A stretch of 7,384 nt of DNA, taken from positions 1 through 7,384 of IMG/VR virus record IMGVR_UViG_2606217102_000023, one strand, 5' to 3'. The notes beneath the pieces were generated by a model that made no database searches, was not told where the DNA came from, and saw only the letters and a list, made by a program, of their open reading frames with translations. Position numbers and translations under genes: made by a program. Origin of the DNA: a virus. Lineage: Duplodnaviria > Heunggongvirae > Uroviricota > Caudoviricetes. Positions 580 to 7,384 of the stretch are shown in pieces (within the stretch, counting starts at the first letter, position 1; every line of letters begins with the position of its first letter).

Positions 580-1629
580 TCAGGATATGGGCGGGGTATC
601 CAGCAGTGCGTAAGGGTTAAAACGGATCACCTCTTCGCCCAGCCAGTCATTAACGTGCTTCATCGCCTCCATCACCGGCATCAGTTCGTTGATCGCAAAC
701 ACTCTGGCCGCCTTCTCCACATCACCAAAAGAACCCTGCCCGCTGGGCATTGCGCCCATCAGTTGTGGTGGTACACGGTGAGCGGCCAGCACATCATCAC
801 GGGAGGCCGCCTTGACGTTCATGAACTCATCCCGGGCGGTGATCTGCTGGAATGGCAGGATTTGCACACCGTCCTTCCCGCCGTTCGGTGCCTGGAGTAG
901 CAGGTTCTTGAATGCCCCACCGCCTCTTGCGCCCTGCAACGCTCTTTCGAGAGCCTGCATACTTTCGCGATCAACCTGTGCTGCCCCCACGTAAATGATG
1001 CAGCCTGCATGTGAACCGTTGTCATAGTAGAGTTTGCGGAAGCGATCTGCCGAGTGCGACAGACTGGCAGACAACAGGCCACCGAGATATTCCGGCATTC
1101 CGTACATCTCCTGGTTGATGTCGGGGTTCAGCACATGGCAGACGCGCCCCTGACGGAACTCGTGGTCCTGCTCCCCCGTCTGCACAAACCAGTACACATC
1201 CGGCTCAACACCACGACGGACGTATTTTGCCAGCGCGTGCCGTAGTTCCAGTTTTCCGCCCAGCCTGTTGGTGCGCAGTTCAAGAAACGCATTCCCGAAG
1301 ACAAACCAGTCCAGCGCAAAGGCGGAGAACGCCTGCCGGGAGAGCAGCCGGTGCGGAATGAAGCAGCCCAGTATGGCATTCCGCTTGAAGTACAGCGCCG
1401 ACTGGTGCCACGAGGTCTGCCGGGATGCCCGCGCCAGTCCGTACCAGTCAACGGGCGTTTCGTAGTATCTGCCGTTACTCAGGCAGTATGCGTTATCCAG
1501 CAGGTCGAGTGCGTGCGCATCGTAAGGGCCGTCGAACGAGAAGGCGCTTAACGACGGCTGGCGGCGCAGTGCCTCTGCCAGCGCCACGCCGTCATCGCGG
1601 CGCGAATATTTTCGTTTTTGTTTTTTCAT
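580..1629 (-). CDS. Phage portal protein (P2 gpQ / PBSX-type, 349 aa)
   Basis: Intact 349-aa ORF, a length typical of P2/PBSX-family portals (P2 gpQ is about 344 aa from memory). Its ATG overlaps the stop of the upstream terminase fragment (TGATG on the minus strand), matching the P-then-Q order of the P2 packaging operon. Family call is from recollection, not a search. Confidence 0.75.
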   Translation of the reverse strand: MKKQKRKYSRRDDGVALAEALRRQPSLSAFSFDGPYDAHALDLLDNAYCLSNGRYYETPVDWYGLARASRQTSWHQSALYFKRNAILGCFIPHRLLSRQAFSAFALDWFVFGNAFLELRTNRLGGKLELRHALAKYVRRGVEPDVYWFVQTGEQDHEFRQGRVCHVLNPDINQEMYGMPEYLGGLLSASLSHSADRFRKLYYDNGSHAGCIIYVGAAQVDRESMQALERALQGARGGGAFKNLLLQAPNGGKDGVQILPFQQITARDEFMNVKAASRDDVLAAHRVPPQLMGAMPSGQGSFGDVEKAARVFAINELMPVMEAMKHVNDWLGEEVIRFNPYALLDTPPIS

Positions 1630-2195
1630 CAGAACTCAATCACCCGCATTCCTGTTGCACCGTCCTCATCGCCCAGCGGCTCGTTAATGACGGCAAGCAT
1701 GGTTGCCCACGCGAGGTCGCCGTGGTTTACGCCGCGTGTGCGGTCTGTTTCATACGTTATTGCCCCGCCCGCCGTTTTTGCCTTGCGCACAGCGTTGAAT
1801 GCCCTGACCAGCTCACGTTCGCCCCGGTCATACTCCCAGCGCCCCGCACGAATAATCTGCAGCATCTTCAGCACAAGCGCGCGTTTGGATGCCAGCGTGA
1901 ACGTGTACGGCACGGCGGCAGGCCAGAACCGCCGCACTATCTGGTACACTGCCTCACCGTTACCGCCGGTCACGTCGATACCAATGTGCTGGACGTTGTA
2001 TTTGTGCGTGAACTGCTCAATCACACGGGCCTGCTCTTCAAATTCCAGCCCCTGCACCTGCAACGTCTCCACCGTGCGGAATTTGCCGCCCCTGACGGCA
2101 GGCGGTACAACAACAGACAGCGCCCCGCTGACGTAGCAGGAAACAGGGGGATTTGCCCCTGTTTTTTTGTTCAGAATGCAGCCTTCACCATTCAT
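1629..2195 (-). pseudogene. Terminase large subunit (P2 gpP-like), 3' fragment covering only the C-terminal nuclease domain; 5' two-thirds absent
   Basis: The translated ORF carries a GIDVTGGNGEA motif and an HGDLAW motif consistent with a terminase nuclease domain, and sits directly upstream of the portal with stop/start overlap. About 170 homologous codons remain where roughly 590 are expected. The first codons of the ORF (about 2140-2195) run through a hairpin/T-tract and gpU-derived DNA, so they are a spurious extension. Confidence 0.65.
2144..2168 (+). terminator. Hairpin (cagggg / cccctg, 6-nt loop) plus T7 run; part of repeat copy A
   Basis: Stem, loop and T-run read directly. The same hairpin-T7-ttcagaatgcagcc arrangement recurs at 2921-2965. 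Confidence 0.4.
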
Positions 2196-2300
2196 CTCTA
2201 ATCGTATTCAGTAATTCGCCCGCAGAAACAAACTAAAATTCATCCCCCGCATCACGCCACTGAAAGCAGACGGTAAACTCCAGATTTTCAAACCAGCGTC
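2175..2300 (-). pseudogene. Decayed second copy of the gpU-like gene 3' end (copy A of a diverged direct repeat)
   Basis: Nucleotide alignment to 2953-3080 by eye (shared ttcagaatgcagcc, agttcgcccgcagaa, catcac.ccgctgaaagc). In the gpU frame it reads FENLEFTVCFQWRDAGDEF*...SAGELLNTIRDEW*, against KKIEFSISFQRCDEDMRERFQSASAGELLNALKDKMPVAAF* in the intact gene. Two in-frame stops. Confidence 0.55.
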
Positions 2301-2534
2301 AGAAGTATTTAAATGGCACCAGATGTAATATGCAGGCGATTAATATGGTGTGCTTAAAGATCATAAAAGCGGGCAACATTAAAACTCCGGGCTGTGTAAA
2401 TTACCGCCACTCATAATCAGAGATGAAAACAGAATTAAACTGGCGGAGTGGATTGTATACATAAAATAAGTTCAGTTGTTGACTTTCACTTCCGTGAATT
2501 GATGAAGGTTATTACAATACATCGGTATGATCTC

Positions 2535-2559
2535 TCCTCCTTAAAAGGGAGGACTTTTC
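2535..2559 (+). terminator. Weak hairpin (tcctcc / ggagga) followed by cttttc
   Basis: 6-bp stem with 7-nt loop read directly. The T-tract is short and interrupted, so this is the weakest of the four. Confidence 0.3.
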
Positions 2560-2615
2560 AGAACGCAGAAATTATTTATAATCCCGTAGTGTTCTATACA
2601 TGCAAACATTCTTTT

Positions 2616-2639
2616 CCCGCCCCGTGCGGGCTTTTTTTT
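2616..2639 (+). terminator. Rho-independent terminator (cccgc / gcggg stem, T8 run)
   Basis: GC stem with 5-nt loop immediately followed by eight T, read directly. Confidence 0.6.
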
Positions 2640-2705
2640 GCCGCAAAGATACAGTAACAAACAAAATTGTAATCATGGCAATCAAAACACGAGAAACATT
2701 TTCAG

Positions 2706-2738
2706 CAATTGCAATAACAAATTAAAATATTGCAATTG
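2706..2738. promoter_or_regulatory. Inverted repeat CAATTGCAAT-N13-ATTGCAATTG (operator-like), right arm overlapping the -35 of the adjacent promoter
   Basis: Perfect 10-bp arms read directly, each containing the palindromic core ATTGCAAT, with arm centres about two helical turns apart. Confidence 0.45.
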
Positions 2739-2759
2739 ACAATCCCCGCTTAATATAAT
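2730..2759 (+). promoter_or_regulatory. Sigma70-like promoter: -35 ttgcaa (2730-2735), 18-bp spacer, consensus -10 tataat (2754-2759)
   Basis: Hexamers and spacing read directly. A perfect ttgaca also sits at 2736-2741 but only 12 bp from the -10, so it is not the functional -35. Confidence 0.4.
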
Positions 2760-2766
2760 CCCTTCC

Positions 2767-2827
2767 GGAACATAGAACATTAAATCTTCACACAATGCAT
2801 GTTGCCCTCTTTATGAGGGCTTTTTTT
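2767..2827 (+). ncRNA. Candidate small RNA of about 60 nt, from the predicted start after the promoter to the terminator T-run
   Basis: Promoter at 2730-2759 and intrinsic terminator at 2804-2827 bracket a short unit with no ribosome-binding site and no credible ORF. Purely structural inference, not homology to any known sRNA. Confidence 0.25.
2804..2827 (+). terminator. Rho-independent terminator (gccctc / gagggc stem, tttat loop, T7 run)
   Basis: Perfect 6-bp GC-rich stem, 5-nt loop and seven T, read directly. Confidence 0.6.
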
Positions 2828-2862
2828 ATTTCCAGAATATCACCATTGCCATCATCGGGCGA

Positions 2863-2890
2863 TTTATATATAGTCAGAATGTATTGACAA
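2863..2890 (-). promoter_or_regulatory. Minus-strand sigma70-like promoter: -35 ttgtca (plus 2885-2890), 16-bp spacer, -10 tataaa (plus 2863-2868)
   Basis: Hexamers read from the reverse complement. It would drive leftward transcription antisense to the candidate sRNA. Confidence 0.3.
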
Positions 2891-2920
2891 CATTTTGCTT
2901 CTTTTCCATGAAGGCCATAA

Positions 2921-2950
2921 GGGAGTGCTTTTTACACTCCCTCTTTTTTT
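2921..2950 (+). terminator. Hairpin (gggagtg / cactccc, 7-nt loop) plus T7 run, abutting the gpU-like stop; part of repeat copy B
   Basis: Perfect 7-bp stem and T-run read directly. Oriented to stop plus-strand transcripts before they run antisense into the gpU-like gene. Confidence 0.55.
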
Positions 2951-2952
2951 AT

Positions 2953-3411
2953 TCAGAATGCAGCCACAGGCATTTTGTCTTTAAGCGCGTTCAGCAGTTC
3001 GCCCGCAGAAGCAGACTGAAACCGCTCTCTCATATCCTCATCACACCGCTGAAAGCTGATGGAAAACTCAATCTTTTTTGCCTTTCCGTAACGATCCAGC
3101 TCGGAGCGGGTGGTCTGTAATCCTGTAATCACGTACATTCCGTAAATCTGCCCCGTGCCATCAATCAGCGGCCAGGGACATCCGGTGTAGGCCTGGGTGT
3201 TCAGCAGTGTCAGTGACACCTCACCACCGGTAATTTCCGGGTACAACAGACCGGACAGCGTGATCTGATCGTCACCTGCGCCAATATACTGCCAGGCCGC
3301 AGAGCGGTTAATGCGCTCATTTTTCACATGTCGCCATGTTTTGCTCTGCTGGATCTGCTGATGCGGAAGCGTTTTCAGCTCAAACACAAACATGCCAAAA
3401 ATCATCATCAT
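2953..3411 (-). CDS. Phage tail protein, P2 gpU-like (152 aa)
   Basis: The N-terminus MMMIFGMFVFELKT and the internal motifs ITLSGLLYPEITGG and WPLIDGTGQIYGMYVITG fit the P2 GpU tail-protein family as I recall it. Strong ribosome-binding site on the minus strand (AGGAG, 8 nt before ATG). No tape-measure gene upstream and no gpD downstream, so it is an orphan in a degraded tail module. Confidence 0.6.
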   Translation of the reverse strand: MMMIFGMFVFELKTLPHQQIQQSKTWRHVKNERINRSAAWQYIGAGDDQITLSGLLYPEITGGEVSLTLLNTQAYTGCPWPLIDGTGQIYGMYVITGLQTTRSELDRYGKAKKIEFSISFQRCDEDMRERFQSASAGELLNALKDKMPVAAF

Positions 3412-3616
3412 AATTGCGTCTCCTTTAGTCCCTGTCGCGGAAGCTGTTCATGCCTGTACGCGCCTGTCTGCGCATCTCTTCGCGGACGGCCTCACCAACC
3501 AGTTTTGCCAGTTCGCGCGGATTCTGTGTGTTGACGTTGTGCAGATGTACATGTATCTCACCGGAAAACGCAGCAGCCTGTGGTTGTGGCGTAGCTTCCC
3601 TTCTGGCCGCTTCGTC

Positions 3617-3874
3617 GTGTCTTTTCCGTGTCCTTTTTGTGGTGCGAGCACACGCACCCGCACCAGTCGCGCAGCGAACGATACCGGAACTGTCCGCTGG
3701 AAACTCTGCCAGTGCAACAACCCGGAATGCAGTCTCTCCTTCTCGACGCTGGAGAGTTTCGACAAAATCACTGTTAAACGTTATGGCTGCACTTCACAGG
3801 ATATTCCGTGGCAAAGCCTGCCTGCGTCTCACCGGGGTGATACGCAGTTGTCACTGCCGTTTCCGGTAATGTGA
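3617..3874 (+). CDS. Ogr/Delta-family zinc-finger transcriptional activator (about 85 aa from GTG 3617; in-frame ATG starts at 3545 and 3551 are alternatives)
   Basis: Translation MSFPCPFCGASTRTRTSRAANDTGTVRWKLCQCNNPECSLSFSTLESFDKITVKRYG aligns by eye with P2 Ogr (MFHCPLCQHAAHARTSRYITDTTKERYHQCQNVNCSATFITYES, from memory): CPxC, RTSR and the C..CS.xF.xES finger are shared. The gene is buried in the C-terminal half of the 160-aa ORF 3392..3874. Start codon uncertain, with no clear ribosome-binding site. Confidence 0.65.
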   Translation: MSFPCPFCGASTRTRTSRAANDTGTVRWKLCQCNNPECSLSFSTLESFDKITVKRYGCTSQDIPWQSLPASHRGDTQLSLPFPVM

Positions 3875-3930: not shown

Positions 3931-4695
3931 TTGACCGGATTTCAACAACGCATCGTGACCGAAAACCCCCGCCTGTACTGTGGCGACGCACTGGCAGTAT
4001 TACCGCATATTGAGCCGGACAGTGTGGACGCACTCATCACCGACCCGCCCTACAGTTCCGGCGCGACACACAAAGCCGGACGCAGCCTTCAGGGCAGCCA
4101 CGCAAAATATCTGAACAGTGAGAGCCTTCACCGCTTTGAGGGCTTCGCAGGTGAAAACATGGATGCCCGTTCATGGGCATACTGGATGCAGTTGTGGATG
4201 ATGCAGGCGTACCGCGCCGTCAGGCCGGGAGGGTATGCTCTGGTCTTTTCCGACTGGCGACAATTACCCGCCCTGACCGATGCTTTTCAGGCAAGTGGCT
4301 TTACATGGCGCGGCATTGTTGTCTGAAACAAAGGAAGAGCGGCGCGAACGCCTCATGTGGGGTATTTCCGGCATCAGTGCGAATTTATGGTATGGGGCAG
4401 CAAAGGCCATCTGGATAAATCCCCGAACGGCCCGTTTGACGGCTGTATGTCGTTTCCGGTCAGGCCGCAAAAGAAACTGCATCCGACCGGAAAACCGGAA
4501 GCGCTGATGGCAGAGTTGATCAGGACAGCAGGCGACGGCGGCACAGTCCTTGACCCGTTCATGGGATCGGGAACCACAGGCGTTGCCGCACTGAAAGCGG
4601 GCTGCAAATTCATCGGCATCGAGACAAGCCCGCACTACTTCAGTGTGACTGTTGAGCGACTGCGGCAGGCGCAGTTGATCCCCGCAGCAGCATAA
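3931..4695 (+). pseudogene. Beta-class DNA methyltransferase (N6-adenine / N4-cytosine type), interrupted by one in-frame TGA at 4324-4326
   Basis: Motif IV DPPY (ITDPPYSS) lies N-terminal and motif I FMGSGTT C-terminal, the beta-class order. ORFs 3871..4326 and 4357..4695 are in the same frame, separated only by TGA at 4324-4326. That TGA falls where the family has a conserved Trp (IVV*NKG here; E. coli YhdJ has RIVWSYD from memory). Probable start is TTG 3931 with GGAG 8 nt upstream; the stretch 3871-3930 is T-rich low-complexity sequence and probably non-coding. Confidence 0.8.
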
Positions 4696-4735
4696 GAAAA
4701 AGCCCGCGCATAACAGTGCGGGCTTTATGTTTCTC
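4696..4735 (+). terminator. Rho-independent terminator after the methyltransferase gene
   Basis: Stem agcccgcgc / gtgcgggct (one G-U pair), 6-nt loop ataaca, followed by T-rich tttatgtttctc and preceded by an A-run, read directly. Confidence 0.6.
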
Positions 4736-4767
4736 GAATATTTGGACACTACGTGGACACTGGAAGA

Positions 4768-4879: not shown

Positions 4880-5091
4880 ATGTCACAAACTATCGACCTG
4901 ACCCTGGACGGCCTGTCCTGCGGTCACTGCGTTAAACGCGTGAAAGAAAGTCTTGAACAGCGTCCGGATGTTGAGCAGGCGGATGTGTCTATCACTGAAG
5001 CGCACGTTACCGGGACTGCCAGTGCAGAACAGCTGATCGAAACCATCAAACAAGCGGGTTATGACGCATCTGTAAGCCACCCAAAGGCTAA
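4880..5091 (+). CDS. copA: CopA(Z), a 70-aa copper chaperone made by programmed -1 ribosomal frameshifting inside copA
   Basis: Slippery heptamer C CCA AAG at 5080-5086 (codons 67-69, H-P-K). After a -1 slip the next codons are GGC then TAA (5089-5091), giving 69 aa + Gly. This matches the frameshift product described for E. coli copA (Meydan et al. 2017, from memory). Confidence 0.7.
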
Positions 5092-7384
5092 ACCGCTGGC
5101 GGAGTCATCAATCCCGTCGGAAGCACTGACAGCGGTTTCTGAGGCGCTTCCGGCAGCGACCGCCGATGACGATGACAGCCAGCAGTTGCTGCTGAGCGGC
5201 ATGAGCTGCGCCAGCTGTGTCACCCGCGTACAAAATGCGCTGCAAAGCGTACCGGGCGTCACTCAGGCACGGGTAAACCTGGCGGAGCGTACTGCGCTGG
5301 TGATGGGCAGTGCCTCCCCACAAGATTTAGTGCAGGCGGTGGAAAAAGCGGGCTACGGCGCGGAAGCGATTGAAGATGACGCTAAACGCCGCGAGCGCCA
5401 GCAAGAAACCGCCGTCGCTACGATGAAGCGCTTCCGCTGGCAGGCAATTGTCGCACTGGCGGTGGGTATCCCGGTGATGGTCTGGGGGATGATCGGCGAT
5501 AACATGATGGTCACCGCTGACAACCGCAGCCTGTGGTTGGTTATCGGCCTGATAACCCTGGCAGTGATGGTTTTCGCCGGCGGCCATTTTTACCGCAGTG
5601 CATGGAAAAGCCTGCTGAACGGTGCGGCGACGATGGATACGCTGGTGGCGCTGGGTACTGGCGTGGCGTGGCTCTATTCGATGAGCGTCAACCTGTGGCC
5701 GCAGTGGTTCCCGATGGAAGCGCGACATCTTTATTACGAAGCCAGCGCGATGATTATCGGTCTGATCAATCTCGGCCATATGCTGGAAGCGCGCGCACGC
5801 CAGCGTTCTTCTAAGGCGCTGGAAAAGTTACTCGATTTAACCCCGCCGACGGCACGCCTGGTTACTGACGAAGGTGAAAAAAGCGTGCCTCTGGCAGAAG
5901 TGCAGCCAGGTATGTTGCTGCGCCTGACGACCGGCGATCGCGTGCCGGTAGATGGCGAGATTACCCAGGGCGAAGCATGGCTGGATGAAGCGATGCTGAC
6001 GGGCGAACCAATCCCGCAGCAAAAAGGCGAAGGCGATAGCGTCCATGCCGGGACAGTGGTACAGGACGGCAGTGTGCTGTTTCGTGCCAGTGCGGTTGGC
6101 AGCCATACTACGCTGTCACGAATCATTCGCATGGTGCGCCAGGCCCAGAGCAGCAAGCCAGAAATCGGTCAGCTGGCGGATAAAATCTCAGCCGTATTTG
6201 TGCCGGTAGTGGTGGTTATTGCGCTTGTCAGTGCGGCAATCTGGTATTTCTTTGGTCCGGCACCGCAGATTGTCTATACCCTGGTGATTGCCACCACGGT
6301 ACTGATTATTGCCTGTCCGTGTGCGCTGGGGCTGGCGACGCCGATGTCGATTATTTCCGGCGTCGGGCGGGCGGCTGAGTTTGGCGTGCTGGTGCGGGAC
6401 GCTGACGCGCTGCAACGCGCCAGTACACTCGACACTGTAGTGTTCGATAAAACCGGGACGCTGACTGAAGGGAAGCCGCAGGTTGTCGCAGTGAAAACAT
6501 TTGCTGATGTTGATGAAGCGCAGGCATTGCGTCTGGCGGCGGCACTGGAGCAAGGTTCCAGCCATCCGCTGGCACGAGCGATCCTCGATAAAGCAGGTGA
6601 TATGCAGCTACCGCAGGTCAACGGTTTCCGCACATTGCGCGGGCTGGGCGTGAGCGGTGAAGCTGAAGGTCATGCGTTATTGCTGGGCAATCAGGCGCTG
6701 TTAAATGAGCAACAGGTTGGTACCAAAGCTATCGAAGCGGAGATTACTGCTCAGGCATCGCAAGGGGCAACGCCTGTGCTGCTGGCGGTTGACGGGAAAG
6801 CGGTAGCCCTGCTGGCAGTACGCGATCCGTTGCGTAGTGATAGCGTGGCGGCGCTGCAACGCCTGCATAAAGCGGGATATCGTCTGGTGATGTTGACCGG
6901 GGATAACCCAACCACCGCCAATGCGATCGCCAAAGAAGCAGGGATTGATGAGGTGATCGCCGGGGTGCTGCCGGACGGTAAAGCCGAAGCGATCAAACAT
7001 CTGCAAAGTGAAGGACGTCAGGTGGCAATGGTGGGCGACGGCATTAACGACGCGCCAGCGCTGGCTCAGGCGGATGTCGGCATTGCGATGGGTGGCGGCA
7101 GTGATGTTGCCATTGAAACCGCGGCGATTACCCTGATGCGCCATAGCCTGATGGGCGTTGCGGATGCGCTCGCTATTTCCCGCGCAACGCTGCACAACAT
7201 GAAGCAGAACCTGCTCGGTGCGTTTATCTACAACAGTATCGGTATTCCGGTCGCCGCCGGTATTTTGTGGCCGTTCACTGGAACACTGCTTAACCCGGTA
7301 GTTGCCGGAGCGGCAATGGCGCTCTCGTCGATTACCGTAGTGAGTAACGCCAACCGGTTGCTGCGGTTTAAACCGAAGGAATAA
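4880..7384 (+). CDS. copA: Copper-exporting P1B-type ATPase CopA (834 aa)
   Basis: Two N-terminal metal-binding domains with GLSCGHC and GMSCASC, the transmembrane CPC motif (IACPCALG), the DKTGT phosphorylation site and the GDGINDAP hinge. Length and sequence match E. coli CopA as I recall it. Confidence 0.97.

Follow-up and report, generated by a model that had tools for sequence, protein, structure and literature searches.

The DNA considered here is the 7384-nt stretch of viral record IMGVR_UViG_2606217102_000023 (hereafter the window), all 7384 bases of which match the chromosome of Escherichia coli strain AST19 at 100%; it is what is left of a P2-like prophage in the E. coli chromosome, adjoining copA. 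Between a truncated large-terminase gene and the convergent gene for a gpU-type tail protein lies a non-coding stretch that carries three tandem plus-strand promoter-to-terminator units, which we call U1 (2555-2638), U2 (2730-2827) and U3 (2846-2950) and which are candidate small-RNA (sRNA) genes. The original prediction for this DNA had flagged the middle unit, U2, as a short plus-strand RNA opposed by a convergent minus-strand promoter and a 32-codon minus-strand open reading frame (ORF), and had likened the arrangement to a type I toxin-antitoxin or sense/antisense module. All features are listed in Table 1.

Table 1. Features of the window in order of position. Fractions with p-values are variable columns over all columns among the variants, compared with third codon positions of the gpU gene.
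Feature	Position	Strand	Remarks
Portal gene	580-1629	-	ORF list and annotation
Large-terminase gene, truncated	1629-2129	-	
Non-coding stretch	about 2130-2950		
Duplicate of the junction terminator with the gpU 3′ end	2146-2300		Terminator 2146-2160 (+), then gpU 3′ remnant of ~140 nt (-)
Tail-fibre-assembly pseudogene remnant	2390-2502	+	In-frame stops; compared with the annotated TUM9803 fragment; abuts U1
U1 promoter-like site	2555-2582	+	TTTTCA-16-TATAAT; 10/12 match
U1 predicted RNA (~50 nt)	2589-2638	+	Terminator CCCGC-CCCGT-GCGGG (2616-2630) and T8 run
U1-U2 spacer	2639-2698		19/60 = 0.32, p=1; equals the gpU third-position rate
32-codon ORF (MFYVPEG...)	2682-2780	-	Within a 37-codon TTG-start ORF, 2682-2795
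Inverted repeat	2706-2738		CAATTGCAATA-N11-TATTGCAATTG; perfect, 11-nt arms (2706-2716 and 2728-2738); overlaps the U2 -35
U2 promoter-like site	2730-2759	+	TTGCAA-18-TATAAT; 10/12 match
U2 predicted RNA, 5′ end	2766-2781	+	Hypervariable, two main alleles; 10/16, p=0.025, faster than gpU third positions
U2 predicted RNA, conserved body and terminator	2782-2827	+	Body TTAAATCTTCACACAATGCATG, terminator 2804-2820, T7 run; 4/46, p=0.0011
U3 promoter-like site	2846-2874	+	TTGCCA-17-TATAGT; 10/12 match; most conserved piece, 1/29, p=6e-4
Claimed minus-strand promoter	2863-2890	-	TTGTCA-16-TATAAA; read from sequence; weak or ambiguous
U3 predicted RNA (~70 nt)	2881-2950	+	Terminator AGGGAGTG-CTTTTTA-CACTCCCT (2920-2942) and T7 run; fold z = -2.8
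gpU-type phage tail protein gene	2953-3411	-	Convergent with the cassettes; translation checked
ogr	3617-3874	+	
DNA-methyltransferase pseudogene	between ogr and copA		
copA	4880-7384		

Promoters were scored by the number of matches to the 12 hexamer positions, with plus-strand sites counted at 10 of 12 or better, while RNA start sites were placed from the -10 positions and RNA ends from the terminators. The distance from the -10 element to the terminator stem is 34 nt in U1, 45 nt in U2 and 46 nt in U3, and the predicted RNA lengths are roughly 50, 62 and 70 nt, with T7-T8 tails; in all three the predicted fold leaves the 5′ body largely open ahead of a G+C-rich hairpin and a run of 7-8 U. 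For a chance control we used 5000 dinucleotide shuffles of positions 2500-2950, in which 0.14 plus-strand promoters were expected at this threshold versus the three observed. A promoter 25-60 nt upstream of all three terminator positions occurred in none of the 5000 shuffles, and upstream of two of the three in one (1/5000); the three-unit layout is non-random. The units themselves are mutually unrelated. As expected of Hfq-type sRNA genes, each appears to have a promoter of its own and a Rho-independent terminator, the U tail reaching the minimum length of 6-7, and the predicted RNA architecture is that of Hfq-type base-pairing sRNAs.

Conservation was assessed across 13 distinct variants drawn from E. 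coli genomes, IMG/VR viral contigs and metagenomes, which fall into four classes: A, that of the window; B, the commonest, which includes ST131 isolates; C; and D. The third codon positions of the adjacent gpU gene, variable at 49 of 152 columns, served as the yardstick for variability. Against this rate the block 2782-2950 is much less variable (20/169 columns, p=1e-5), the RNAs of U1 (7/51, p=0.011) and U3 (12/70, p=0.023) also vary less, and all three terminators are kept in 4/4 classes. The U3 stem also shows one compensatory change, from GTG..CAC to GTC..GAC, in strain TUM9803. Constraint reaches beyond the hairpins into the promoters and single-stranded bodies, which is the pattern that functional promoters and RNA bodies would give. 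The neighbouring patch 2699-2781, comprising the sequence upstream of U2, its promoter spacer and the RNA 5′ end, varies at 39 of 83 columns versus the 49 of 152 for gpU third positions, and its promoter-spacer types and 5′ alleles have been recombined among the classes; its fast evolution reflects either diversifying selection or a micro-mosaic. This fast-evolving U2 patch inside constrained non-coding DNA is the one unusual feature of the locus.

Within U2, the plus-strand promoter and the strong terminator named in the original prediction are both present (GCCCTC-TTTAT-GAGGGC plus T7 at 2804-2827, giving a predicted RNA of about 2766-2827). Every variant keeps TATAAT and the TTG of the -35, whose remaining bases change to give TTGTTT in class C, and the spacer stays 17-18 nt long with a hypervariable sequence (12/18 variable columns, p=0.008, faster than gpU third positions). 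The 22-nt body at 2782-2803 does not change in any of the 13 distinct variants, and folding predictions leave most of it unpaired, which points to a conserved single-stranded seed in U2; the corresponding evidence for U1 and U3 is weaker. The proposed plus-strand sRNA of ~60 nt has thus kept its promoter-like site, its strong intrinsic terminator and an invariant 3′ body, and is supported as a candidate at the sequence level.

U1 has an invariant -10 element across the variants and a -35 that changes to TTTACA in class C. In classes C and D, the tail-fibre-assembly fragment homologous to the pseudogene remnant beside U1 is still an open frame, annotated in TUM9803, with its TAA end inside the U1 promoter spacer. 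Because this fragment ends within the spacer, U1 can be read as a unit of the 3′ untranslated region (3′-UTR) type that reuses the tail-fibre-assembly terminator, and it seems to have arisen from a decayed tail-fibre-assembly gene, of which it uses the 3′ end and terminator. It resembles 3′-UTR sRNAs with an internal promoter, of the DapZ and MicL type (PMC9438474), in that the -35 and part of the spacer lie inside the tail-fibre-assembly 3′ end in classes C and D and the gene's terminator is shared, and it differs from them in that the parent gene is a mere fragment or pseudogene. An apparent U1-U2 complementarity of 8-10 bp was treated as chance, since upon inspection it is lost in the other classes.

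The locus has a narrow distribution. Of 5426 complete E. coli genomes, 72 have the 601-base stretch around U2, in every case on the chromosome. The units occur jointly: anchors for U1, U2 and U3 all match the same five viral contigs, and a metagenome scan returned 5 true matches, all of known classes, together with 7 chance 19-mers. No cassette match was found among phage records (megablast and blastn) or plasmid records (megablast), nor by an exact 22-mer scan of species-representative genomes, nor when the 521-nt region was compared by blastn with 43 gpU-relative loci from other species (Citrobacter, Salmonella, Serratia, Enterobacter, Pantoea and others). At the gpU-relative loci that we inspected, the tail-fibre-assembly gene converges on gpU across a gap of about 10-160 nt, which in Pantoea holds a single bidirectional terminator. 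Because the junctions of other genera are short and give no match, the cassette of ~450 nt is best seen as a lineage-specific expansion. Longer junctions do occur in Enterobacter and Serratia (loci L019, L021 and L012, at about 4500-4650), where a conserved non-coding motif common to them, TATCGAGTA..GTCATTTTTA.C..TGCT.CAGCAC, is accompanied by a terminator; a scan of these junctions found no sigma-70-like promoter.

We interpret U1, U2 and U3 as an array of unannotated candidate sRNA genes that resembles a moron, the flagged unit being the middle one of the three, and give this interpretation a probability of roughly 50%. The array would occupy an expanded non-coding junction between the tail-fibre operon on the plus strand and the convergent, gpU-ended tail operon on the minus strand, in one lineage of E. 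coli P2-like prophages. Sigma-70 RNA polymerase would read each cassette into an RNA of ~50-70 nt, and these RNAs would act in trans through short base pairing on host or phage transcripts, with the invariant single-stranded stretch UUAAAUCUUCACACAAUGCAUG of U2 as the likeliest pairing or Hfq-contact region. The sequence anatomy, its non-randomness, the pattern of conservation and the distribution are observed directly, and from them we infer transcription, its start sites, Hfq dependence and action in trans.

Several points weigh against an array of functional sRNAs. The case is built from sequence, and the start sites derive solely from the -10 positions; in the commonest class, B, and in D, the U2 -35 is TTGCAT, which takes the promoter below the scan threshold. 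There are only about four independent sequence classes, so the covariation evidence is minimal, and mosaic recombination rather than purifying selection could lie behind part of the conservation contrast. In Rfam, neither the whole window nor 2480-2965, searched with permissive filters, reached the threshold of any family; the matches were due to terminators, including the best one in the region, to SpF51 (22.8 bits against a threshold of 50). A k-mer complementarity search for targets within the 35-kb class-B prophage found best matches of 9-11 nt, inside the range of shuffles, and a possible role as a sponge for GcvB, prompted by the CACACAA motif of U2, was rejected when the pairing proved no better than that of shuffles. 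Neither topic nor sequence searches of the literature library found a description of the locus. Finally, flanking remnants of gpU and of the tail-fibre-assembly gene show that the region is partly a recombination graveyard. Apart from these points, no tRNA or tmRNA was found in the window, and the papers on P2 hotspots that we consulted do not mention the locus.

The duplicated terminator and gpU 3′ end at 2146-2300, which also shows up in repeat families D2 and D4, has 78% column identity to 2915-3125 and lies 800 bp upstream of the true gpU end. Sequences resembling the end of gpU turn up again behind several hairpins and within the promoter regions of U1 and U2 (repeat families D1, D2 and D4). 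The duplicate suggests that tail-fibre modules were exchanged by recombination at the junction, stacking old junctions one upon another. All three units might then be recombination scars with stacked terminators, left by repeated exchange of tail-fibre modules: the terminators would only stop or insulate the tail-fibre operon, the promoter-like hexamers would be by-products of A+T-rich DNA in decay, and there would be no functional small RNA. The diverged second terminator with its copy of the gpU 3′ end, the repeat families, the pseudogene fragment abutting U1, the single terminator that suffices at the junction of relatives and the failure to find a target, whether in the 35-kb class-B prophage or in GcvB, all fit such an origin. 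Nonetheless we consider it somewhat unlikely, given that strong promoter-like sites stand correctly placed before 3/3 terminators, an arrangement seen in 0/5000 shuffles, that promoters and single-stranded bodies are constrained too while the neighbouring spacer changes as fast as gpU third positions, and that the key promoter elements persist within the hypervariable patch.

The position of the units relative to gpU raises a further explanation, in which the plus-strand RNAs or the convergent promoters act in cis on read-through from the gpU operon, either because the RNAs pair with its 3′ extension and allow RNase III processing or through polymerase collision, and so shield the tail-fibre genes from antisense transcription. 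All units face the gpU operon, and the gpU stop codon lies only 3 nt from the T-run that ends U3. Past that stop codon, no minus-strand terminator-like site was found across 2131-2952, and the three hairpins have no T-run on the minus strand; the original prediction had likewise reported no minus-strand terminator, and our search agrees in finding none between 2131 and 4113. Such an antisense or insulator role is nevertheless distinctly unlikely, as relatives in other genera manage with one bidirectional terminator, the read-through of the gpU operon is itself only assumed, and conserved single-stranded bodies would be superfluous for a mere roadblock.

The inverted repeat that the original prediction described over the U2 promoter as operator-like is present, and perfect over 11-nt arms. 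It is made up of the 8-bp palindrome ATTGCAAT twice over, at a distance of 21 bp; arms of at least 11 nt arose in 6 of 1000 dinucleotide shuffles of 2500-2950, and the stretch has a fold z-score of -4.4. This dyad is confined to class A and absent from classes B-D, and no further copy of ATTGCAAT was found in 24.6 kb of the class-A prophage locus, including the sequence beside a repressor-like gene. Similarly, no motif related to the U2 upstream sequences was found in the early-region intergenic stretch of class B. Control of U2 by the immunity repressor was rejected on the absence of the motif beside the class-A repressor-like gene and in the class-B early region. A repressor-controlled promoter should have a dyad that is conserved or is matched at the other operators of its cognate repressor, and the dyad here is neither. 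We regard the class-A repeat as lineage-specific, possibly a protein site, and outside the conserved design.

On the minus strand, the promoter claimed at 2863-2890 fared poorly. Neither the scan nor our re-implementation of it found any minus-strand promoter-like site in 2500-2950, even at 9 of 12; the claimed site was missed because its -10 element is without the near-invariant last T. As the site overlaps the plus-strand promoter of U3, which scores better and has its own terminator, conservation at 2863-2890 is unable to separate the strands, and this DNA is probably better read as the U3 promoter, though the minus-strand site might have some activity of its own. The 32-codon ORF does exist in the window, and it is found in class A only: the corresponding position is without an ORF in classes B and D, and in class C it holds a 44-codon ORF read in a different frame. 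It has no Shine-Dalgarno sequence, the peptides gave no Pfam or NCBIfam match at E<=1, and no small ORF on either strand is conserved across the classes, several of them running through terminator hairpins. The region of the 32-codon ORF is also the fastest-evolving stretch of the locus, and the ORF is probably not a gene.

For these reasons, a type I toxin-antitoxin or sense/antisense pair, in which a minus-strand mRNA starting from 2863-2890 encodes the 32-residue peptide and is repressed by the plus-strand RNA of ~60 nt, is highly improbable. What speaks for it is the geometry in the window, where the predicted plus-strand RNA (2766-2827) covers the ATG of the ORF at 2780-2778, along with a minus-strand promoter that reaches 10/12 if the last base of its -10 is ignored and an inverted repeat that is statistically unusual. 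Like the hok/sok, ldr/rdl and ibs/sib loci, the arrangement sets a small ORF under a short terminated RNA on the opposite strand; unlike them, it has an ORF that is not conserved, no ribosome-binding site, no known toxin family and only a weak promoter. Toxin ORFs of such systems are small, usually hydrophobic and conserved among homologous loci, whereas the ORF here, like the inverted repeat, is present in only one of the four sequence classes. Because both are restricted to class A, the peptide matches no Pfam or NCBIfam model and ATTGCAAT has no other copy in the 24.6 kb searched, the toxin-antitoxin and operator readings are unsupported as general features, and as judged from the variants the former is largely refuted by missing conservation. 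Separately, the intact class-B prophage of SCU-176 (L067) has an annotated gene of the Hok/Gef family, a type I toxin, next to ogr at 4909-5049; a toxin-antitoxin system of type I is present in this kind of prophage, though away from the flagged site.

Returning to the candidate sRNA array, the closest counterparts are the short prophage RNAs of pathogenic E. coli (AgvB, AsxR and Pas), each a short RNA ending in an intrinsic terminator. AgvB and AsxR (PMC4104026) and the Pas sRNAs (bioRxiv 10.64898/2026.05.13.724894) are Hfq-associated sRNAs or anti-sRNAs from lambdoid prophages of pathogenic E. coli. Like our cassettes, they are short stand-alone intergenic genes beside structural (capsid or tail) genes of a prophage, are strain-restricted and vary in sequence between prophages. 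They differ in residing in lambdoid rather than P2-like prophages and, as judged from Rfam and from a sequence search of the literature library, share no sequence similarity with U1-U3; moreover, the GcvB sponge test was negative here, the three tandem units are unrelated to one another, and Hfq binding and expression are only predicted. In phages, the term moron denotes an inserted gene that brings its own promoter and terminator and lies between conserved genes, and the non-essential Z/fun gene of P2, which follows the tail-fibre genes, is an example. By comparison with related phages, the cassettes would likewise qualify as an insertion with its own promoters and terminators: they are extra DNA positioned right after the tail-fibre-assembly gene and absent from relatives. 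Unlike Z/fun, the cargo here is non-coding, with no conserved ORF, and the site is a convergent junction in a prophage whose tail operon is inverted relative to P2.

A stronger form of the sRNA-array interpretation would make this an RNA-only accessory module at a moron site, composed of three unrelated, independently transcribed and selected small RNAs, with U2 combining an invariant seed and a 5′ and promoter-proximal segment that diversifies more rapidly than synonymous sites nearby. Such a module might rewire host regulation or compete with other phages or satellites, with allele-specific regulation or specificity. We view this stronger form as unlikely. Expression of the cassettes would extend the prophage-encoded riboregulators to a P2-like prophage, and it would mean that purely non-coding cargo can occupy the accessory site behind the tail-fibre genes. 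As ST131 isolates are among the carriers, a host target, if there is one, could matter for the physiology of a major clinical lineage. If they are not expressed, the locus would be a record of repeated tail-fibre module exchange. For either outcome, the constrained block set against the fast-evolving patch offers a concrete experimental handle.

The wider setting of the remnant can be seen from intact prophages such as SCU-176, in which the cassette site lies between the tail-fibre operon on the plus strand and the convergent tail operon (sheath, tube, tape measure and gpU) on the minus strand. In P2, the tail operon from FI to U runs the opposite way to that of the lineage studied here. Relative to this order, the sheath-to-gpU operon is inverted in L002 and L067, where gene D and ogr keep the other orientation, and this inversion accounts for the convergent junction that houses the cassette. 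Two deletion joints, at ~2130 and ~3411-3610 of the window, delimit the prophage remnant. At the first, the tail-fibre operon runs at its end straight into a terminase fragment; at the second, ogr follows almost directly after gpU, whereas strain H1827/12, another class-A carrier, retains the tape measure, tube, sheath and gene D between them. The small-RNA-like cassette has outlasted both deletions. Between the methyltransferase pseudogene and copA, a strong hairpin of 11 pairs (AAAGCCCGCGC...GCGGGCTTT, at 4648-4745) gives sub-threshold Rfam matches to the Thr and Leu leaders and is most likely a plain terminator. Elsewhere in this prophage type, ParM/ParR-like plasmid partition genes, a feature of about a quarter of P2-like phages (PMC9122126), are located between the replication gene and the portal gene (L001, 5493-6771; L067, 30780-32055).

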